DNA of 20,000 nucleotides from an uncultured virus (IMG/VR IMGVR_UViG_3300035698_024761) (taxonomy: Duplodnaviria; Heunggongvirae; Uroviricota; Caudoviricetes), in the IMG/VR virus record IMGVR_UViG_3300035698_024761, one strand, 5' to 3'. Both the position numbers and the translations under genes were made by a program. The first letter of the stretch is position 1. The number at the start of each line of letters is the position of its first letter. Of the stretch, positions 3,474-11,904 are shown one piece after another. The notes under the pieces are model-generated. The model saw only the letters and a list, made by a program, of their open reading frames with translations, was not told the origin of the DNA and did no database searches.

Positions 3474-3610
3474 ATTGTTAGGGCCGACATGCCCCCCGTC
3501 GTGGTTAATGGATTACTCGATAAGCTACCAGCGCAGTCTAGCAGCAAAGTAGATAGTCGCCCAATAACAGCATCGCCAGTTATCATATTCGTGAATCGTG
3601 TCGCGGTAAC

Positions 3611-3758
3611 TAAGATACATAGTATCTTATATACAGCTAAGTTCCAGTTTTGAATCATAGTCGTGAATTGTATCAAATCGTAGAAGATACGTAGTATCTT
3701 ATATACAGCTAAGTTCTTGCCCTCCAGAACTTAGCTGTATATAGCCTTAACGGCTATA
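3611..3758. repeat. AT-rich direct/inverted repeat complex
   Basis: 33-bp direct repeat AAGATAC(A/G)TAGTATCTTATATACAGCTAAGTTC at 3612-3644 and 3684-3716. Perfect 18-bp inverted repeat at 3700-3717/3726-3743. Smaller hairpins at 3611-3629, 3684-3700 and 3740-3758. Confidence 0.9.
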
Positions 3759-3861: not shown

Positions 3862-4290
3862 GACATGGTAGGCCAGGGTTTCAACGCGATCGCGGACTGT
3901 AATGTCAAGCAACTATTCAATGGGTTTCATCAGCAATTTGGCCAAATATGTTAAGGCAACGGCCCAATGGGTTTCACAGGCAACACGGCCAGATACGTTA
4001 AGGCAATCTATCCACGAGTTTCACTGACAATTCGGTCAAATATGTTGAGGCAACTCCTGGGCGGGTTTCATTATTTTCCTGGCCTCAATTTTCTTGCTGA
4101 CAAAAATATAGCTGGCAAACCGCCGTGGGGTTTCATCTCGAGAATGGCCAGATATGTTAAGGCAAAGCCTCGGTGGATTTCATGACGGTAATGGCCAAAT
4201 ATGTTAAGGCACCAGTTGAATGGGTTTCAGGCTCGCAACGGCCAGATATGTTAAGGCAAGTCGTCTTCGGGTTTCACGGGTTTAATGGCG
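3862..4290 (-). ncRNA. TIGR-like dual-spacer array, cluster A (9 units)
   Basis: Plus-strand pattern GGCA-N10-GGGTTTCA-N10-GGCC(ARATATGTTAA). Loop repeats at 3876, 3922, 3969, 4016, 4063, 4128, 4175, 4222 and 4269; mostly 47-bp period; unique spacers. Confidence 0.85.
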
Positions 4291-4306
4291 ACAACAGTCT
4301 ATTACG

Positions 4307-4471
4307 TCAAGCTTCTACCCTAACAGAACAATACTTTCTTTCTCCTGTCCAACTTTCGCTCTTTACCCACTCTTTGGCTTCTTCTTCCGTGTTGACTGTT
4401 TGCCCTGTTGGCTTCGGGCTTGAACGAAGCGTTCCATCACCATCCTCCATCAAAACGTAAACTGTCCTCAT
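4307..4471 (-). CDS. small protein between array clusters (54 aa, MRTVYVLMEDGDGTLRSSPKPTGQTVNTEEEAKEWVKSESWTGERKYCSVRVEA)
   Basis: Translated by hand (below track cutoff). Strong RBS GAGGAGATATAA-ATG; fills the gap between clusters A and B. Confidence 0.8.
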   Translation of the reverse strand: MRTVYVLMEDGDGTLRSSPKPTGQTVNTEEEAKEWVKSESWTGERKYCSVRVEA

Positions 4472-4480
4472 TTATATCTC

Positions 4481-4704
4481 CTCACATCCTTTTCGGGTTT
4501 CAGAGAGAGTGCGGCCGAATACATTAAGGCACGACCGGCCCGGGTTTCAAATCACAGAAGGCCAGATATGTTAAGGCACACGGGTAACGGGTTTCAGTCA
4601 CACGACAGCCAGATATGTTAAGGCAAGTCCTTAGCGGGTTTCATTTCGCACTCGGCCAAATATGACAAGGCAGGCAATTAGTGGGTTTCACGCGACGATC
4701 GGCC
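4481..4704 (-). ncRNA. TIGR-like dual-spacer array, cluster B (5 units)
   Basis: GGGTTTCA at 4495, 4542, 4589, 4636 and 4683 (exact 47-bp period), each flanked by 10-nt variable segments and the edge repeat. Confidence 0.85.
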
Positions 4705-4731
4705 TATTATGTTTCTGTACTTCCAATTCGA

Positions 4732-4926
4732 TTACAGGATAGTGTTTGTCGCCGTTACGGCCGCGTAACGGGCCGTAAGGCCCATTTTCTTTGCTCTTGC
4801 GTTCCGTTCCTCGGCCGATTCCTCGGCCGATTTCAGGTCGTTGTAGCCTTGCACTACGTCGCCGTTTGCGTGAAGCACGCGGAAAGGCCTCGTCAGGTAG
4901 TCTGGGTTTTTCTTCTCAGTGGACAT
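4732..4926 (-). CDS. small protein between array clusters (64 aa, MSTEKKNPDYLTRPFRVLHANG...)
   Basis: C-terminal part of track ORF 4732..5106. ATG 4926 follows a purine-rich leader; the upstream extension is array sequence. Confidence 0.7.
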   Translation of the reverse strand: MSTEKKNPDYLTRPFRVLHANGDVVQGYNDLKSAEESAEERNARAKKMGLTARYAAVTATNTIL

Positions 4927-4999
4927 CGTTCTTTTTCTCGAAGTTAAAATTACGTGATTAAGACTCCAACATACGAATAGTGCAGCCAAATACGTTAAA

Positions 5000-5288
5000 A
5001 GCATCCCGAACCTGGATTTCAAGGCGCCAATGGCCAAATATGTTAAGGCAGGGCTGTCGCGGGTTTTACCGACTAAACGGCCAAATATGTTAAGGCAATA
5101 CATCAATGGGTTTCATTGCCTGTGCAGCCAAATATGTTAAGGCAAGCGCTTCAAGGATCTCATCGCGGCCTCGGCCAAATATGTCAAGGCATACCCCCGG
5201 CGGGTTTCAAAGTCGGACTAGCCTCAATTTTTTTGCTGACAAAAATATAGCTGGCATTCCTGCCACAGGTTTCACAAAGACTTCAGCC
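5000..5288 (-). ncRNA. TIGR-like dual-spacer array, cluster C (6 units, plus an extra edge repeat at 4984-5003)
   Basis: Loop repeats at 5014, 5061, 5108, 5155, 5202 and 5267; 47-bp period except across one long edge repeat. Confidence 0.85.
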
Positions 5289-5301
5289 GGCTATGGCGAC
5301 T

Positions 5302-5880
5302 TTAGGTTGTAGGGTAACCCTGGCCAAACGGATTAAGGGGATCGCAGACTGGACTTAGCGCGCTTGCGGCGGCGGTCAGCGCCAATGCTAGCCGTCTCGC
5401 ATCCGAGTCCGGCTGCGATTCCGGCTGCGATTCCGGCTGCGATTCTTCCTGCCGTGACAGCATCCGATATGTGTGCATAATCATTTCGCTGAGTGTGTTG
5501 GCAGCGCGCTGCGGAAAACGCCGGGCGTACTCCACGACAAAGCCGTGCGCACAAGCAAATTCGAAATTCGACTTGCCGATGGACATCGCACTTTTGATAG
5601 CATAATGCAGGCCCACATGCCTATTAAAACTATCACGAGGATTCAGCGCAGAGGCGCCAATGCAAATGCAAGGTCCCGTATCTAACACAAAGGCAACACC
5701 TATCGGCCGGCCGCGGCCTGCGTAATAGGCCATGCCGGCCATTTTCTTACTTAGCTCTTCGGCGTTTACAGGACACCTGTGATCGTCGCGAACAATCCGC
5801 ACCCACGGGTGCTGCGTTCGTCGAAATCCATCGGCCTCCTCACGACATTGCTCAATAAACGCTTGGCGTGATTTTGCCAT
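5302..5880 (-). CDS. hypothetical phage protein (192 aa) with C-terminal ESQP repeats, between clusters C and D
   Basis: AAGGAG RBS and ATG; GxS...DxFxxxxG pattern like small phage proteins. Confidence 0.8.
   Translation of the reverse strand: MAKSRQAFIEQCREEADGFRRTQHPWVRIVRDDHRCPVNAEELSKKMAGMAYYAGRGRPIGVAFVLDTGPCICIGASALNPRDSFNRHVGLHYAIKSAMSIGKSNFEFACAHGFVVEYARRFPQRAANTLSEMIMHTYRMLSRQEESQPESQPESQPDSDARRLALALTAAASALSPVCDPLNPFGQGYPTT
5408..5443. repeat. 12-bp tandem repeat TCCGGCTGCGAT x3 (in-frame ESQP)
   Basis: Directly visible in the sequence. Confidence 0.9.
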
Positions 5881-5923
5881 TGATAATCTCCTTTTAGATT
5901 CCCTTGATTAAACGTTAGCGGCG

Positions 5924-6085
5924 GACAGCTGTCGTTTGGATTCCACCCTTGTATCTAAATAGTAGGCAAAATTCCCAGAGATTTCACGTCGAACACGGCC
6001 CACTATGCCTTTGGGTTTCATAGTCCATATGGGCGGCCAAATATGTTAAGGCACGCGCGGTTCTGCTTTCAGAAGTCGTACGGCC
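5924..6085 (-). ncRNA. degenerate TIGR-like cluster D (about 4 units)
   Basis: Loop variants GGATTCCA 5938, AGATTTCA 5979, GGGTTTCA 6013 and TGCTTTCA 6064 with 10-nt spacing. Perfect edge repeat GGCCAAATATGTTAAGGCA at 6035-6053. Confidence 0.65.
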
Positions 6086-6432
6086 GGGGTATATCGCCAG
6101 ACGATTCGCTCGACGAGCATTTCATTTGCCAGGTATACCTGATACGGACTATGTGATTTGGGAAGCACACCTCGCACACGACAACGCACGATGGCTTTGG
6201 GTGCTACGTTCTTGAATCGCGAAAGAAGGCTCTTAGCGTCATCCAGCCGCAGGAAAATGTGCCATCCAGAGGTATACCAAGTCGTGCCGCCGTCACGCAC
6301 GCGCTTCCGCTCTGCCTTGAGCCACATATTCCGAGGAATCGTACGCGATCCGTGAAAGCCGTGGAATAGGGTTTTGATATTTGGCCCGGCAACGTCTACG
6401 AGTCGATAGGCTACAGTTTCTTCGCTTTTCAT
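6046..6432 (-). CDS. hypothetical basic phage protein (128 aa; KTLFHG...YTSGWH)
   Basis: ATG 6432 overlaps the TAA of the upstream gene (TAATG); the stop codon lies in an array edge repeat. Confidence 0.75.
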   Translation of the reverse strand: MKSEETVAYRLVDVAGPNIKTLFHGFHGSRTIPRNMWLKAERKRVRDGGTTWYTSGWHIFLRLDDAKSLLSRFKNVAPKAIVRCRVRGVLPKSHSPYQVYLANEMLVERIVWRYTPAVRLLKAEPRVP

Positions 6433-6974
6433 TATCCGTAATCCACGTCCGTATTTTTGGGGAGGCTTACGGTCTGATCGCCTACGAAAACATCCAATGA
6501 GCTTTCCTCCTGTTCCCATTTGCCATTAGCGAAGCCGGAATTGTCGTCATAGTGTAAATAGGCAGACTGTATGCAGGTATCATAGAGACAAAGCTGATAC
6601 GCACTACCGTCCTTTATCGCAACAAACGCAAACCGATTGCTGTTGCTATTGCAACCCTTGCGAACGACTAATAGCCCGTTGTTGTTGGCCCACGCTGCGA
6701 CGTCTGGCGGAATTTCACCTTTATGCGGAAAGAGGAGCAGCTGCGGATACTTGTGTAATTGCAAGCGTGGCGACATCTGCCGCGTCCGCTTGCCCGTGTC
6801 ACGCACGATCTGAATATCAAAATTAAAGCCATGCTTGTTGCACATGCCCACTTTCGTGACTGTGATGCATTGCCATATGCCTTTACGTGTTATTTTGAGC
6901 AATCCTAAATCCCCCACTTTGGCATTGCCAGCAGGGAATCCATGCGGCTTGTGTGGCTTCTCAGACTTTTTCAT
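6432..6974 (-). CDS. hypothetical protein (180 aa)
   Basis: GGAG RBS, ATGA overlap, coupled to both neighbours. Confidence 0.75.
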   Translation of the reverse strand: MKKSEKPHKPHGFPAGNAKVGDLGLLKITRKGIWQCITVTKVGMCNKHGFNFDIQIVRDTGKRTRQMSPRLQLHKYPQLLLFPHKGEIPPDVAAWANNNGLLVVRKGCNSNSNRFAFVAIKDGSAYQLCLYDTCIQSAYLHYDDNSGFANGKWEQEESSLDVFVGDQTVSLPKNTDVDYG

Positions 6975-7234
6975 GCTAACTCCGAATCTCCTTCGGCTTC
7001 CTCAACAGTAATGTGTGTCGCTACCTTAATGACAATAGCGTCGGCGTGGCGAGCATCCGGCAACGATCGAAATAGATTTGCCCAATGCTCAGCGACAACT
7101 AATCGCGGGAATATCGTGGCTTTCTCCGCGTTGCTTAGATATTCGCCGCCGGGCGTATCAGCGTCCAAATATAGCGATTTGGTGTTGTCTACCCGTCCAT
7201 GCGGGCGATAGCAGATTGCATATTTGATTAGCAT
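6971..7234 (-). CDS. hypothetical protein (87 aa)
   Basis: Coupled to the downstream ORF; purine-rich leader. Confidence 0.65.
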   Translation of the reverse strand: MLIKYAICYRPHGRVDNTKSLYLDADTPGGEYLSNAEKATIFPRLVVAEHWANLFRSLPDARHADAIVIKVATHITVEEAEGDSELA

Positions 7235-7325
7235 GTAGCTTGCTCTTTCTTAGGAGACTAGGCTTTCCCGTTTGAAAAAGTCTGCTCTCTCTGTAATAAT
7301 GAACTTCGGCAGAAAGGAGTTTGCC

Positions 7326-8177
7326 ATGAGTTTTAGCAGAATGCTAATACCCTTTCGCGTGCTGGCGTTGCCGCTATTGTTTGCAATCAACGCCTTTGGT
7401 CAGTCGCCCGAATGGATCGAGGTGCCGGCGCTTCGACAGGTTAGTACCCGCATTGGCACAGTCTTGGCTGATATCGATAGTCGACTGCCGGCAACAAGCA
7501 ACCAATACACGTTTAGCAGTAGCACCTATCGCGACGCGGATTTATCTTGCTGGGCGCACGAGGCGACCCATGGTGTCAACGCCCGCATTCGCAACCAGTA
7601 CGGCGACAGCACGGGCGTCGATAACGGATTCTATGTACTCCACGGACGAGGCGTACTTATTAGAGAACCCTGTCCGTTGACGTTTCCCGAGGTGTCCCGG
7701 CAAGTACCGCTAGCATTGCGTGCGCAAGGCTATCCGCTCTACATGGTGCAGCAGGCGCAGGTGTGGCGAGAGCATCCACTCAATATCGTGGATGAGTGGA
7801 CAGCCTACGTTAACGGCGCGTACGCAACGATGGAATACGAAGCGACTGGCCGTCCGCACCACGGATCCCACGATGTAGCTCGCGCGGTAGAAATGGGCAT
7901 CTATACGCTCGTGCTAGCCCGGCAGATTGCGATCGGCATCCACAAGCAAACGCTCGCTTATGACGATACACAGTTCCGCTTTTATACAGGCTGGCATTGG
8001 TGTCGTACTCGCGATCTGATGGCCAAATCCGCTAAGTATCCGCGTCTTCAGGGCGGGGATCCGATGGCGTTGCTTGACAAACTTCGTCTGTCGCGAGACG
8101 CTCAGACGGCGAATCTTCGGGATTGGTTGCGGGTGTACTTTGGGAAGGCGTGGTGCCAGGCGGTACTCGACTTTTGA
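7326..8177 (+). CDS. putative secreted zincin-like (HExxH) metallopeptidase
   Basis: AAAGGAG RBS before ATG 7326; signal-peptide-like N-terminus (RVLALPLLFAINAFG|QS); WAHEATHG motif and downstream DEW as a possible third ligand. Confidence 0.65.
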   Translation: MSFSRMLIPFRVLALPLLFAINAFGQSPEWIEVPALRQVSTRIGTVLADIDSRLPATSNQYTFSSSTYRDADLSCWAHEATHGVNARIRNQYGDSTGVDNGFYVLHGRGVLIREPCPLTFPEVSRQVPLALRAQGYPLYMVQQAQVWREHPLNIVDEWTAYVNGAYATMEYEATGRPHHGSHDVARAVEMGIYTLVLARQIAIGIHKQTLAYDDTQFRFYTGWHWCRTRDLMAKSAKYPRLQGGDPMALLDKLRLSRDAQTANLRDWLRVYFGKAWCQAVLDF

Positions 8178-8565
8178 CCCTGCCTGCTTCCACCAATTCA
8201 TCCCACGACGCCACTACATTCTCCGGCAACTTCGCGGGAAGAAGATCTTTGAGGGCATGCAAATCGCCAATAATCGCCAGATATACAGCAGGGATCGACT
8301 CGCCCACACGCCAAACGACTGCTAGAAATTCGGCCATTACAACGCCGATGGTGGTGAACACTGCCATAACATCGAAGAGTTCTATCGAGCGACTGACGCG
8401 TTCGCCATCAAGATATAAGAAATGGCCGTAGGTTTCAGGCTCGTTGGGCCGACTGGCCGCTGTCTCGTTGACTAGCTGTATTCGCTCAGGGCAAACTTTC
8501 GCCATCTTTTGGCAGATCTGTATCAAGCGACTCGAAACGCTTTCGTGCTTTGGTTCCTCAATCAT
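8032..8565 (-). CDS. hypothetical protein (about 177 aa), C-terminus overlaps the convergent gene
   Basis: AAAGGA RBS and ATG 8565 overlapping the upstream gene end. Confidence 0.6.
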   Translation of the reverse strand: MIEEPKHESVSSRLIQICQKMAKVCPERIQLVNETAASRPNEPETYGHFLYLDGERVSRSIELFDVMAVFTTIGVVMAEFLAVVWRVGESIPAVYLAIIGDLHALKDLLPAKLPENVVASWDELVEAGRVKSRVPPGTTPSQSTPATNPEDSPSERLATDEVCQATPSDPRPEDADT

Positions 8566-8884
8566 GCTGCTTTCCTTTGAGTTTACGAATCTTGAATACT
8601 GTAGGGCGAAGCTGCTTATAGAGTACCAGTCCCGCTTTACCGAAACGGCGCTCGACAGCTGCCAAGGGCAATTCTTTTGGCAGCGGCCTAACGACTTCCG
8701 CAATAAACTTCTTGTCGTCGAGCCCTTTGACATTGTCAGGCCAAAACGCGGTAAGATCTACTTTGAATAGTTCGCGGACTGCCGCATAGTGATGCATATG
8801 GGTCACGCCATGGAGCGTAATAGTTCGCTGCATTGTGCTGGACACATCCGACGAGTCGCGGCTAGCTCGCTGCTTTTTTGTCAT
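8558..8884 (-). CDS. hypothetical protein (108 aa)
   Basis: Overlaps both neighbours in an operon-like run. Confidence 0.65.
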   Translation of the reverse strand: MTKKQRASRDSSDVSSTMQRTITLHGVTHMHHYAAVRELFKVDLTAFWPDNVKGLDDKKFIAEVVRPLPKELPLAAVERRFGKAGLVLYKQLRPTVFKIRKLKGKQHD

Positions 8885-9851
8885 CTTTCTCGCGTAGGGG
8901 GTTATAGAACTCGGTGAAGCAGCAATGTTGCCGAAGATTTCGCGGTTTGGGTTTCCGCCGCGTAATTTCGAAGTCCATCCATTCGCACAGCTGCGCTGCG
9001 GCTTGCTTCCAACTTTTGCGCGTACGGACCAGCGTGCGCTTCCATTCTTGCTTGAATGTCTGAAACGCGGCTAGTTGGCGATGGGCATTCAATCCATATA
9101 CCATATTAAAAATCTGCACTGTTTGTTTTAGCACGTATGCAGCGTTCTGACGACTACTGTAATAGCTTGAATGGTTGGACATCCACGTACCAATATTATC
9201 GAGCTCAAGCTCACTCGCAAACTTATAGGTAAGGCAAGCGACAGTCGGCGCAGTGACAAAAAGGTCTTGCGGCCTCTGTAGCTCGCGACGGCGTGCAAAC
9301 GCGCGTGCTTTCTTGGGATTGTAAACGATCTCGTTTGCATCGCTGAGGTGACAACCGGCGGCATATAACCGCTTTCGTTCCGTTCCGTTGTAGCTCGCGT
9401 AAAAAAATGATTTGGTCAACTTATTGCATATAATACGCCCATGCGATTTAGCCAACGAAATCGCCTCTTCAATATCGTCGCCGAAATACATCGGATGATC
9501 CCACACGCGTAACGTATCTTCCTTGCCGGCCGGCCCGCCATCATGCGCATAATTAGGCGAGGTAGATCCGTACGCCGCATAGGTGTAAGTAGTGCCGAAA
9601 ACCGTAACGCGAGGCAAGTCGCGATGCGGTGATGGAAATCGCTTATGTAGCGCCGCGACGGCGTCCTGGCGAGTTTTCGCCAGGACGCACTCGGATCGCG
9701 GCGCTGCCATCAATTTGTCAAGATTTGTGCACGCATCCCAAAACGAAGGCTCTTCGCTGCGTTGGATAAATCCTAGAACCTCCGGCCACTGAGTGGCTGC
9801 GGGTACGCGCGTTTCCTTCGTTTGTGATGGCACTGTGACGATCGCAGGCAT
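8862..9851 (-). CDS. hypothetical protein (329 aa)
   Basis: Long ORF starting 2 nt after the upstream stop; no family recognised. Confidence 0.8.
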   Translation of the reverse strand: MPAIVTVPSQTKETRVPAATQWPEVLGFIQRSEEPSFWDACTNLDKLMAAPRSECVLAKTRQDAVAALHKRFPSPHRDLPRVTVFGTTYTYAAYGSTSPNYAHDGGPAGKEDTLRVWDHPMYFGDDIEEAISLAKSHGRIICNKLTKSFFYASYNGTERKRLYAAGCHLSDANEIVYNPKKARAFARRRELQRPQDLFVTAPTVACLTYKFASELELDNIGTWMSNHSSYYSSRQNAAYVLKQTVQIFNMVYGLNAHRQLAAFQTFKQEWKRTLVRTRKSWKQAAAQLCEWMDFEITRRKPKPRNLRQHCCFTEFYNPLREKDDKKAAS

Positions 9852-9852
9852 C

Positions 9853-10539
9853 TTAGCCTACCGAAAGCCTTTTCATGTCCTCAACGACATTGTCGTTGAG
9901 CATTGAGAGCACCTGACGACCGGTTTCCGTGGCGTTCAAGCGAGCTGCAGCCAGTCGTCCTTTCGCCTTTCGCTCATAGCTATCCAGATTGTCCAACTTG
10001 TGTCGCCAGTCGTACTGCGCGTCGCGAGCTGTGGCGACTTGTGCTTCGAGGGCGTGACGTTTTGTCTGCAATTTTACGGTGGGGGCGGCGGCGTCGCAGC
10101 TGAAATGGATAGCCGCTTCGGGATTATCGCGGTGACTTTTTACGGCTACAAGCACTTTTCCGTTTATTTTGATCGTCGATCCGCTTATAAACGTAGTGGC
10201 CTGGATCTTTGTGATCGGGTCGTATTTCAGCGACTTAAACGCGGCGTTGAGTTGCTTTGCGGCTGTCGCGGCGAACCTCTGCGCGGTTTCATTGCATTGC
10301 AGCTGTATCTGCGAGGCGATCGCATCGATTTCTTTGCCTAGTCGGTGCTGCTCGCTACGGAAGTTGTTAATCTGCTCTTGGCAGACGTCTTCGGCGCGAG
10401 ACATGGCCAGGGCCAGTACATCGTCTTTGTCCAATTCGGAATGCAACGGAAACTCGTCGCCTTGTAACACTGGAATACCTTTGATCGGTGCGATATGCGT
10501 GGTCGGTGCCTTGCTATTCGCGCGTGTGTGCTTCGCCAT
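9853..10539 (-). CDS. coiled-coil-rich hypothetical protein (228 aa)
   Basis: AGGAG RBS; two heptad-rich helices flank a beta-rich centre. Confidence 0.8.
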   Translation of the reverse strand: MAKHTRANSKAPTTHIAPIKGIPVLQGDEFPLHSELDKDDVLALAMSRAEDVCQEQINNFRSEQHRLGKEIDAIASQIQLQCNETAQRFAATAAKQLNAAFKSLKYDPITKIQATTFISGSTIKINGKVLVAVKSHRDNPEAAIHFSCDAAAPTVKLQTKRHALEAQVATARDAQYDWRHKLDNLDSYERKAKGRLAAARLNATETGRQVLSMLNDNVVEDMKRLSVG

Positions 10540-10553
10540 TTCGGCATCTCCTG

Positions 10554-10850
10554 TTAACGTGGATTCCTTTTGCTCAAAAACTCTTCCCAGCGGGCGACGT
10601 CAGAAACCATATCTAACGGATTCATCCCGGATACGATTGCGCGACGGCCCATTACAACTATTTCGGTCTCGCCATTATTTCTGATTGCCCGATCAGAGAC
10701 CACAACATACTCACTAGCATGCGGACCGGGCGCGAAACGATAGTAAACGAGTAGCCCTCGCTTTATCTTTATGCCATCAAACGTAATAACGGCGTCTGTT
10801 GGTAGCTTTACTAGCTCCACTACAGGGCAGCGGGCAATGCTGGCACTCAT
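10554..10850 (-). CDS. hypothetical protein (about 98 aa)
   Basis: GGAG RBS before ATG 10850 (MSASIAR...) within track ORF 10554..10877. Confidence 0.65.
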   Translation of the reverse strand: MSASIARCPVVELVKLPTDAVITFDGIKIKRGLLVYYRFAPGPHASEYVVVSDRAIRNNGETEIVVMGRRAIVSGMNPLDMVSDVARWEEFLSKRNPR

Positions 10851-10997
10851 GGCGTTATCTCCATGCGGGTTATCCAATTTGGTTTTTACAGCACCAGCGG
10901 GATTTGGTAAACTGAGGAATGCTCCAAAACACCTGCTCGCGCAGAAGATTTACCAAGGCGTGAAACTTCACCGAGCATTGAAAGCGAGGCAACTCAA

Positions 10998-11495
10998 ATG
11001 GCCATGGATAGGCGATCCAGGAAACGTAAGGCTCTCGATGAGCTTGACCAACTATCATAATATGCACACCTATCAGAAGATGAGAAACTTTCCAAGATTC
11101 GTGAGCTCGAACGTAAGCTCGCGACAGCCGAGGTCGAACAAAAGGCGTTGGCCGAAAAGCACAAGCAGGCTGAGGGCCAACGGAGGCCGCCATCTACGCT
11201 CAGAATCACCTCTATACCGGAATAGAGCGGCTAATAAAGGCGGCGAATGTCTCCAATATACTGTTTACCGCTAATCACGGCAACCACGGACGTGCTACAC
11301 AACGAAAACGAATCAGCACGGGTTGGAAGACATCTTGGGAGTGGATGACCTGCAACAATATCGCGCTACGCTACTCCGATAATCCAAAAGTGCAATGCAA
11401 GCTAGCCAAAGGTTACATTAACCTTGTAAACATTCAAGGACATCCCGCGCGCTTTCATCACGGGGATGCCATGCGTTTCCAGGGCGGCGTAGGTT
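10998..11495 (+). pseudogene. decayed calcineurin-like metallophosphoesterase gene with N-terminal coiled coil
   Basis: ATG 10998 gives MAMDRRSRKRKALDELDQLS*YAHLSEDEKLSKIRELERKLA... with in-frame TAA at 11058. A different frame from 11174 gives GPTEAAIYAQNHLYTGIERL...NHGNHGR...SWEW...RFHHGDAMRFQGGVG. GNH and HGD motifs are present; DxH, GD and the C-terminal GHxH motifs are missing. Confidence 0.7.
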
Positions 11496-11904
11496 GCATG
11501 CGGCAACCGGCTGTCGATAGAATTGTAGCAGTACATCGGCGGGTTTCATGCCAGTAGCGGCTATCGATAGAACAGTGGCAGATCTCTCGCGGGTTTCACA
11601 AGTTGCTTGGCCGTATAGGAGGCAGCATATTCAATTCGGGTTTCAAATCAATCACAGCTGCCGTTAAATGTCATGGCAAAACGAGGTCAGGTTCCATTGC
11701 GGCATCGGCCATATAAAGGATAGCAGTTTAGGAACGGGTTACACGCAACGCTTGAAAGCAACGCAACGCACGTTTGGGATGCATGGCCGACACGGCGCTA
11801 TGTAGATTAAAGGGCAAAACTCAGCTGGAATGCATTCATTGTTTGGCCTTTATGGTATTATAAAAGTAGGCAATTGCCATCTAGATTTCATTGTACGTCT
11901 GGCC
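11477..11904 (-). ncRNA. TIGR-like dual-spacer array, cluster E (8 clear units plus a junction unit) with variable edge repeats
   Basis: Loop repeats at 11491, 11541, 11591, 11638, 11689, 11736, 11776, 11827 and 11883, nearly all in (A/G)GCA-N10-loop8-N10-(G/A)GCN context. Confidence 0.8.

Follow-up and report, generated by a model that had tools for sequence, protein, structure and literature searches.

Complementary terminal bases in paired TIGR spacers suggest a 17-letter DNA target

Introduction

The TIGR-Tas systems make up a recently described family of DNA-targeting, RNA-guided systems that, according to the papers describing them, have already been used in genome editing, and for which the same papers list the natural targets and the origin of the spacers as open questions. 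In the published systems, spacers A and B pair with opposite DNA strands. The founding paper (Faure et al. 2025, PMC12045711) described an 18-bp target and spacers without obvious covariation, and dismissed an overlap between the 2 spacers because no such covariation was seen there; the DNAs tested in that paper include a 1-bp-overlap substrate (Table S3). Designed 18-bp targets are reported to work for TaTasR and ParTasR, and 18 bp is also the length that the solved complexes are said to read. For the TaTasR complex, the Science paper describes pairing of all 9 nt of each spacer with DNA, and according to its section 8 different protomers bind the 2 box D elements, the one after spacer A and the one after spacer B. 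The preprint places box C at the unwinding junction and gives heteroduplex lengths of 8 bp for SpTasH and 9 bp for TaTasR and PlTasA. In the yeast study, mismatches at the spacer edges were reported to be partly tolerated, and about half of the designed guides to be inactive without known cause.

Here, we describe a complementarity between the last bases of the 2 spacers of a TIGR unit, for which we found no earlier report in the literature. The paired end bases suggest a DNA target of 17 rather than 18 letters.

Results

A TIGR Locus With Long Edge Repeats

The window, by which we mean the whole stretch of 20,000 nucleotides analyzed here, is a fragment from an uncultured virus of the Caudoviricetes (IMG/VR record IMGVR_UViG_3300035698_024761). 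Judged from its repeats, it contains one TIGR (tandem interspaced guide RNA) locus that consists of 5 mini-arrays and is predicted to be transcribed from the minus strand. The mini-arrays and one example of the edge repeat are located as follows.

3862..4290, minus strand: TIGR mini-array A, 9 units; loop anchors (starts of plus-strand GGGTTTCA) at 3876-4269
4146..4164, minus strand: one example of the 19-nt edge repeat, plus-strand GGCCARATATGTTAAGGCA
4481..4704, minus strand: TIGR mini-array B, 5 units; anchors at 4495-4683
5000..5288, minus strand: TIGR mini-array C, 6 units; anchors at 5014-5267
5965..6085, minus strand: TIGR mini-array D, 3 degenerate units; anchors at 5979, 6013 and 6064
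11477..11904, minus strand: TIGR mini-array E, 8 units with divergent edge repeats; anchors at 11491-11883

The 31 units, each spanning anchor-14 to anchor+21, were kept by eye from 63 loop-like anchors, with GGCA-like and GGCC-like flanks as the criterion and with the minus strand as the reading strand; the other 32 anchors were left out as isolated chance matches. On the minus strand, the order within a unit is CCR, the 9-nt spacer A, UG, AAAC, CCR, the 9-nt spacer B, UG, and a 15-nt edge gap, and every spacer is flanked by CCR and UG in both repeats. The 2 alternating repeats and the 2 variable spacers (mean pairwise spacer identity 0.26) recur in tandem with a period of 47 nt. The edge repeat reads UG-CC-UUAACAUAUYU-GG-CC on the RNA strand, corresponding to box D, a 2-bp closing stem, an 11-nt linker, and box C. 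Its halves can pair, with columns 1/36 complementary in 24 of the 31 units (plus 2 with G/U) and columns 3/34 in 30 of the 31. Each unit would yield a tigRNA composed of GG, CCR, spacer A (9 nt), UG, AAAC, CCR, spacer B (9 nt), UG, and CC.

A canonical 36-nt unit with 4-nt gaps in both repeats was not found in the window: the loop gap was 4 nt and the edge gap 15 nt, and it is because of this long edge that the period is 47 nt in place of 36 nt. Since the core amounts to 36 nt when the 11-nt linker is subtracted, the window array was treated as a putative variant with a long edge, intermediate between the dual-repeat and the stem-loop type. A box C/D guide RNA was also considered and rejected, as the RUGAUGA and CUGA K-turn boxes were absent and the boxes in the window were CCR and UG only.

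The TaTasR and ParTasR arrays, as given in the founding paper (PMC12045711), share with the window the loop repeat UGAAACCC(A), the window loop UGAAACCC being equal to the TaTasR loop in Table S3. They also share a CCA-like box C, a UG box D, 2 9-nt spacers per unit, a short stem formed by the 2 edge halves, and complementarity at spacer position 9. The window differs from them in its period (47 nt, not 36 nt), in its edge gap (15 nt, as CC + 11 + GG, not 4 nt), in having A or G as the third base of box C, and in that its arrays are split into 5 mini-arrays between small genes. The SpTasH system of Salicola phage CGphi29 (NC_020844) is likewise phage-borne, with dual repeats and a CCA box C before each spacer, but its box D is AG and its heteroduplexes are described as 8 bp in length; position 9 in its array is almost always A and therefore cannot covary. 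The TasA-linked arrays that we collected (L019, L022/L074, L024, L030, L062, L188/L199, and L194) have the same loop and boxes as the window, and edges with a closing stem and a linker, these edges being longer and variable. They differ from the window in that a TasA-like gene is located beside or around the arrays.

TasA is found alongside the same-loop arrays elsewhere, but no tas gene was detected in the 20-kb window by Pfam searches of its 24 ORFs, by a profile of 5 TasA relatives run against the six-frame translation (best E-value 1.1), or by a motif scan. The exact edge repeat of the window had 0 matches in viral_contigs, and a search of the phage collection with the window gave no match. 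A looser unit pattern produced 18 single matches, all of which were attributed to chance, and many later viral matches were coding 9-bp repeats that were discarded at a mean spacer identity > 0.4. DNA contigs from four runs contained variant arrays, with no informative change at position 9.

Complementarity Between the Terminal Spacer Bases

The covarying plus-strand bases are located at anchor-10, the first base after GGCA, and at anchor+8, the first base after GGGTTTCA; their complements are position 9 of spacer B and of spacer A, respectively. These 2 bases formed a Watson-Crick pair in 23 of the 31 units, a G/U pair in 5, and another combination in 3. For the 28 units of mini-arrays A to C and E, the numbers were 22, 4, and 2, which exactly reproduces the count in the original prediction, whose example coordinates and 17-mers were also correctly built. 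In 200,000 shuffles of the 31 units, the mean was 9.3 (sd 2.3) and the maximum 20, and the observed value of 23 was never reached. Position 9/9 had the highest mutual information (0.97) of the 630 column pairs in the 36-nt unit, and the covariation survived automatic unit finding, with Watson-Crick pairs in 21 of 28 units against 7.9 expected. The preceding position was at chance level, as had been claimed (10 of 31 for position 8 vs position 8), and so was the pairing of spacer B with spacer A of the next unit (6 of 23 against 7.3 expected).

Position 9 was Watson-Crick paired in 7 of the 8 units of mini-array E, while the 3 units of mini-array D, which were absent from the original count, had G/U, A/G, and C/G. 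The degenerate unit at 5267 in mini-array C was among the nonpairing exceptions. The composition at position 9 in the window was skewed, with spacer A being A-rich and spacer B U-rich.

The covariation recurred in 18 other, related arrays, with 102 Watson-Crick pairs in 209 units against 56.5 expected (sd 5.8), and in 30 canonical TasR-type GAGCCA/UGNAACCCA arrays, with 143 in 288 units against 88.5 (sd 6.7, maximum 116 in 5000 shuffles). Among the 9 x 9 position combinations of the pooled units, only position 9/9 stood out (z = 8.0; next highest 2.3), and the 4 types of Watson-Crick pair were all enriched, 1.5- to 2.4-fold. Controls taken across the edge repeat were flat (34/159 against 40.8 and 71/200 against 65.6), which confines the covariation to the 2 spacers of one unit. 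In the visible parts of the published Table S1, read by eye, the terminal bases were complementary in 8 of 8 units of the ParTasR array and in 3 of 6 units of the TaTasR array. The position-9 rule spans the window, about 50 further arrays, and the published ParTasR array, and the covariation is limited to position 9/9, to one unit, and to strict Watson-Crick pairs.

In most arrays, complementary units made up only about half of the total, the fraction varying from about 30% to 100% between arrays. Among the TasA-linked arrays, covariation was shared by L074 (12/19), L194 (15/26), and L199 (10 Watson-Crick and 12 G/U of 26), whereas L024 (3/11), L030 (3/11), and L062 (5/16) showed nothing at position 9. 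Position 9 was a constant A/A in the CCU-box arrays L019, L025, L191, and L217, and 16 of 52 canonical arrays had purine/purine combinations, mostly G/G.

It had been argued that the A/C and C/A exceptions on the plus strand are G-U wobbles on a minus-strand RNA and thereby support this strand as the transcript. However, G/U pairs were at or below the composition expectation, with 4 in the window against about 4.5 expected, 24 against 37.2 in the canonical arrays, and 36 against 38.6 in the same-loop arrays. The wobble argument therefore fails, and the idea that the G/U exceptions mark an RNA helix was rejected. The assignment of the minus strand as the RNA strand was upheld because of the orientation of box C and box D (CCR ... 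UG), not because of wobble pairs.

Target Register and Searches for Natural Targets

The published 18-bp target oligo of TaTasR tigRNA1 (Table S3) consists of spacer A and, directly after it, spacer B in reverse complement, which agrees with the location of the covariation: the spacer ends involved are those that come together at the center of the target. When we aligned the oligos of Table S3 ourselves, the overlap of 1 bp was the only register in which the wcaD site of E. coli, which TaTasR nicks, matched spacer A at 6 of 9 positions, the adjacent register giving 4 of 9; the text of the founding paper quotes "6 out of 9" for this site (PMC12045711).

A search for spacer A joined to the reverse complement of spacer B at different spacings had been suggested for locating natural targets. 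In the DNA gathered for comparison in this analysis, exact co-occurrence of positions 1-8 of the 2 spacers was found 7 times at the 17-bp spacing, where 0.74 would be expected, and 0-1 times at each of the others, the single match at 18 bp being of low complexity. A further 1.8 Mb of DNA did not reproduce this peak: 1 new match was obtained against 0.84 expected, and the background there is over-dispersed, as a meaningless cell reached 5 where 0.88 would be expected. Matches with one mismatch were not enriched (42 against about 39). Position 9 agreed with the center of the 7 natural 8+1+8 matches for 4 of the 14 terminal bases, which is chance level, and for 1 of 4 Watson-Crick units. Searches of the units against their own locus and against four whole viral records gave no enrichment at any spacing; a single 17-bp match with 1 mismatch at L194 1789-1805 was not significant after allowing for ten spacings. 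The genome loci that contain three of the co-occurrence matches had been fetched for CTGAAACC microsatellites and are not TIGR arrays.

Discussion

The explanation that we prefer, with somewhat less than even confidence, is that natural spacer pairs in the window and in many other TIGR arrays come from and read a 17-bp site in which the 2 position-9 bases share the central base pair. In the published systems, the 5' ends of the spacers, on the box C side, each lie at one of the 2 unwinding junctions, and the 3' ends, on the box D side, come together at the target center, as the TaTasR target oligo confirms. With this polarity, an overlap of 1 bp would place exactly the two position-9 bases on one pair, with guide positions 1-8 covering 8 bp on each side of the center and each position 9 pairing with one base of the central pair; the terminal bases would be complementary because both read that pair. 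We infer both the overlapping 17-bp register and the actual pairing of the 2 position-9 bases with DNA. The covariation in the window and in the independent arrays, the flat controls, the wcaD register, the 17-bp co-occurrence peak, the ParTasR and TaTasR arrays, and the differing heteroduplex lengths count in favor of this explanation. Counted against it are the unfitting centers (4/14), the failed replication, the roughly one-half complementary units, the flat arrays and those of the G/G type, the skewed position 9, the working 18-bp targets, and the failure to detect a tas gene in the window. The lack of G/U enrichment is predicted if both bases are copied from one DNA base pair, and is less expected for an RNA helix.

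A close rival, plausible but carrying a smaller share of our belief, also has a 17-bp site (8 + 1 + 8), in which the position-9 bases pair with each other rather than with DNA, bridging the inner ends of two 8-bp heteroduplexes over a central DNA pair that is left unread. An RNA-RNA pair of this kind would account for natural centers that bear no relation to position 9, and relatives can have a constant, nonguide position 9, such as the A in the SpTasH array with its 8-bp heteroduplex, the constant A/A in 4 arrays, and the frequent G/G in the 16 canonical arrays. The skewed composition and the reported partial tolerance of edge mismatches in yeast point in the same direction. However, it would stand as a lone pair, G/U is depleted like any mismatch in the canonical arrays, and the set of natural matches is small and was not replicated. 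Moreover, the Science paper describes different protomers holding the 2 box D elements and, in the solved TaTasR complex, DNA pairing along the full length of both spacers. It is plausible, though less likely than not, that natural TIGR guides form a symmetric composite duplex of 17 positions on their target, to which spacer A and spacer B each contribute 8 bp with DNA, while the RNA-RNA position-9 pair lies between them on the dyad, over an unread central DNA pair. If so, position 9 would serve as a clasp of the structure, fixing the register, and not as a guide letter, and TIGR systems would fall into register classes with a constant purine, a self-paired, or a fully guiding position 9.

It is improbable, in our view, that the complementarity is only a footprint of how units are made, with the spacer pair copied from a short duplex with a 1-nt overlap, no role in targeting, and a position 9 later free of selection for target pairing. 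The strictly Watson-Crick complementarity that does not favor G/U and the spread of complementary fractions between arrays, as expected from decay, are compatible with such a history, and spacer acquisition is an open question in the published papers. Mutational decay should nevertheless give G/U and A/C alike, along with many purine/purine and pyrimidine/pyrimidine combinations, whereas 28 of the 31 units in the window still pair when G/U is counted. Furthermore, if units derive from a 17-bp site, their guides would be reading it in any case, and the footprint then merges with the shared central pair.

Least probable is an adjacent 18-bp target with a preferred central homodinucleotide (AA, CC, GG, or TT), which agrees with the 18 bp used in all solved complexes and engineered guides as described, and with the fact that adjacent half-sites with complementary position-9 bases have identical top-strand bases 9 and 10, but for which no physical reason is known to us, which needs GA, AG, TC, and CT steps to be disfavored while AA and GG are favored, and which gave 1 low-complexity co-occurrence, compared with 7 at the 17-bp spacing.

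If 17 bp is the natural register, protospacer searches should use 8+1+8 patterns or overlapping 17-mers instead of 18-mers, models of acquisition must explain how a single short duplex yields the 2 spacers with an overlap of 1 nt, and guide design may gain an extra rule, which may be compared with the inactivity of about half of the guides in yeast.

An IS110 bridge RNA was rejected as the identity of the locus, since the window contains a 31-unit array and no IS110/Transposase_20 match among its 24 ORFs. The bridge RNA is one structured, two-loop noncoding RNA located at the end of an IS110-family recombinase gene; it also has donor-binding guides and has no box C/box D array. The parallel drawn in the original prediction holds as a resemblance and no further: 2 short guides in one RNA address the two opposite strands of a site with a core at its center, and in the bridge RNA this core is common to both guides.

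Structure of the Array Units

A 47-nt repeat was organized in 5 clusters between positions 3862 and 11904 of the window, with the following unit:

3862-11904, minus strand: GG, CCR, 9-nt spacer A, UG, AAAC, CCR, 9-nt spacer B, UG, CC, 11-nt linker UUAACAUAUYU

TIGR arrays are defined, in Faure et al. (2025, PMC12045711), by a CCA-like "box C" and a UG "box D" that flank two 9-nt spacers, and in Table S3 of the same paper the loop repeat of TaTasR is that of the window, UGAAACCC. The window unit departs from the canonical 36-nt TIGR unit only at the edge, which has CC, 11 nt, and GG in place of the 4-nt gap. The way the boxes are oriented establishes that the array RNA corresponds to the minus strand.

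At 4081-4117 and 5220-5256, the edge between two units was longer, about 37 nt (GGCCTCAATTTTYTTGCTGACAAAAATATAGCTGGCA) rather than the usual 19 nt, giving a unit spacing of 65 nt; this longer edge may act as an internal promoter or represent a variant of processing. Immediately beyond array A, on its downstream side when read along the RNA (3582-3745), a 72-nt direct repeat of 1.9 copies preceded a 12-bp inverted repeat, CAGCTAAGTTCT ... AGAACTTAGCTG, which may serve as a terminator. Small open reading frames of about 55 and 64 codons were located between the mini-arrays on the minus strand (4290-4480 and 4735-4930), so that guides and tiny genes alternate along one strand; neither had a family match.

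Covariation at Position 9 in the Window

From 63 loop-like anchors, taken as the plus-strand start of the loop repeat, 31 units with unit-like flanks were retained. Position 9, the 3'-terminal base of each spacer, was Watson-Crick complementary between spacers A and B in 23 of these units, a G/U combination in 5 and another combination in 3, and none of 200,000 shuffles reached the observed 23 (mean 9.3, maximum 20). The original prediction had reported this complementarity for clusters A to C and E, where we recovered the same count (22/28 Watson-Crick, 4 G/U); it also bore out in the mutual information of all unit columns, in which position 9 against position 9 ranked first of 630 column pairs, with a value of 0.97. 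An automatic unit finder gave 21/28 Watson-Crick pairs in the window, with 7.9 expected. Position 8 against position 8 was at chance (10/31), and an across-edge control, in which spacer B was compared with spacer A of the next unit, showed no pairing excess (6/23 versus 7.3).

A related array, L032, shared one identical spacer B with the window (unit at 1279 in L032, anchor 5108 in the window). The corresponding spacer A sequences were unrelated, but both ended in A, so the terminal pair was kept.

Covariation in Other Arrays

The covariation at position 9 is real and general. Further arrays came from single scans of metagenomes and of genomes and from several scans of viral sequences, and loci with "spacers" more than 40% alike were dropped because these were coding 9-bp repeats. 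Since a constant column cannot covary, arrays with constant A/A (L019, L025, L191, L217) or G/G (L319, L320, L324, L325, L364, L365) at position 9 were omitted before the first pooled count. Excluding the window, the 18 arrays left, with 209 unique units, contained 102 Watson-Crick pairs, compared to 56.5 expected (sd 5.8). Across the 9 x 9 combinations of spacer positions, pooled over these arrays, the sole departure from chance was position 9 against position 9 (z = 8.0; next highest 2.3), and the across-edge control gave 34/159 versus 40.8. The signal was clear in individual arrays such as L074 (12/19), L194 (15/26), and L252 (10/12), and was not seen in L024 (3/11), L030 (3/11), and L062 (5/16).

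A scan for TaTasR/ParTasR-type units identified 52 canonical arrays with 497 unique units. Purine/purine combinations, mostly G/G, occupied position 9 of both spacers in 16 of the 52 arrays (193 units). These were set aside, and the 30 arrays with at least 4 units among the other 36 (288 units) contained 143 Watson-Crick pairs versus 88.5 expected (sd 6.7, z = 8.2), with 71/200 versus 65.6 in the across-edge control.

Published arrays were scored by eye from the visible part of the cells in Table S1 of Faure et al. (2025, PMC12045711). Among the units visible there, position 9 was complementary in 8/8 for ParTasR, 3/6 for TaTasR, about 4/9 for FpTasA, and 2/4 for PlTasA. In the SpTasH array it was nearly always A, as was confirmed on the phage record.

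The canonical arrays (loci L394-L470) were thus of 2 kinds by position 9, purine/purine or variable and self-complementary, and both kinds of unit were mixed within L445, L446, and L460. The 4 arrays with constant A in both spacers had CCU as box C, and this A could form an A-U pair with the box's third base. Pattern matches in 2 Saprospirales-type genome records (L082, 4900-5150; L092, 4960-5120) were rejected as TIGR arrays, being long CTGAAACC-type microsatellites that mimic the loop motif.

Strict Watson-Crick Complementarity

With expectations derived from the composition within each array, each of the 4 Watson-Crick types was enriched 1.5- to 2.4-fold. G/U combinations were not enriched in the canonical arrays (24 versus 37.2), the same-loop arrays (36 versus 38.6), or the window (4 versus about 4.5), and the earlier argument that G-U wobbles identify the transcript therefore does not hold. 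The assignment to the minus strand stands on the box orientation and loses its support from wobble.

Target Geometry and Natural Targets

According to Table S3 (PMC12045711), the 18-bp target oligo of the published TaTasR guide tigRNA1 reads as spacer A and then the reverse complement of spacer B, and the 3' ends of the spacers thus abut at the target centre. A 2026 preprint locates the unwinding junction at box C and gives heteroduplexes of 9 bp in TaTasR and PlTasA and 8 bp in SpTasH. With central 3' ends and box C at the junction, a 1-bp overlap would bring position 9 of both spacers to a single base pair. In tigRNA1 the position-9 bases are C and G, and among the substrates for fig. S7D, Table S3 has one named "1 bp spacer A/B overlap". 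Aligned to spacer A, the oligo for wcaD, the E. coli site nicked by TaTasR, would match at 6/9 positions in the overlap register and 4/9 in the adjacent register; 6 of 9 is also the figure given in the text of Faure et al.

A central base pair read by both guides, as originally proposed, is our tentative reading, at somewhat short of an even chance. A doubtful but still sizeable possibility is that the position-9 bases pair with each other, RNA to RNA, above an unread centre. Both readings imply a natural site of 17 positions. Subsequent preprints and an NAR paper of 2026 describe TIGR targets of 18 bp and call the natural ones undetermined.

Self-targets were not enriched within the loci or in 4 whole viral records. 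In a scan of 712 units against both strands of 4.87 Mb of DNA, exact matches to positions 1-8 of spacer A and to the reverse complement of positions 1-8 of spacer B were sought together, with expected counts from mismatched spacer partners. The 17-bp spacing gave 7 exact matches versus 0.74 expected (one low-complexity, one inside a collagen-like repeat), 0 or 1 were seen at 16 bp and at each spacing from 18 to 22 bp, and 3 other spacer arrangements gave at most 3. The one-mismatch class showed no excess, and the 17-bp excess was not repeated in a further 1.8 Mb (1 new match versus 0.84, with 5 versus 0.88 in a meaningless cell). These co-occurrences are weakly suggestive of a 17-bp footprint. 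The central base fitted position 9 in only 4/14 terminal bases and in 1/4 Watson-Crick units, which leans weakly against a target centre that is read, as the shared base pair would have it. The remaining, smaller probability covers a footprint left by spacer acquisition and an 18-bp site centred on a homodinucleotide.

Faure et al. note no obvious covariation of the spacers. The covariation is apparently new to the literature: no report of a position-9 rule was found in full-text searches on tigRNA, and closed supplements or other papers might still contain one.

tas Genes and Occurrence

No tas gene was found in the 20-kb window with Pfam and PHROGs on 24 ORFs, a TasA profile built from 5 relatives against the six-frame translation, and a motif scan. 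Metagenomic and viral arrays sharing this loop were adjoined by a TasA-like gene. Of the window's sampled words, a fraction of 0.23 to 0.68 was present in 4 runs labelled salt lake metagenome. In L024 (1092-2462) and L022 (2507-3811), guide units were located in frame, inside or ahead of a TasA-like reading frame, with the loop translated as Glu-Thr-Gln; the 2026 preprint describes intragenic TIGR arrays.
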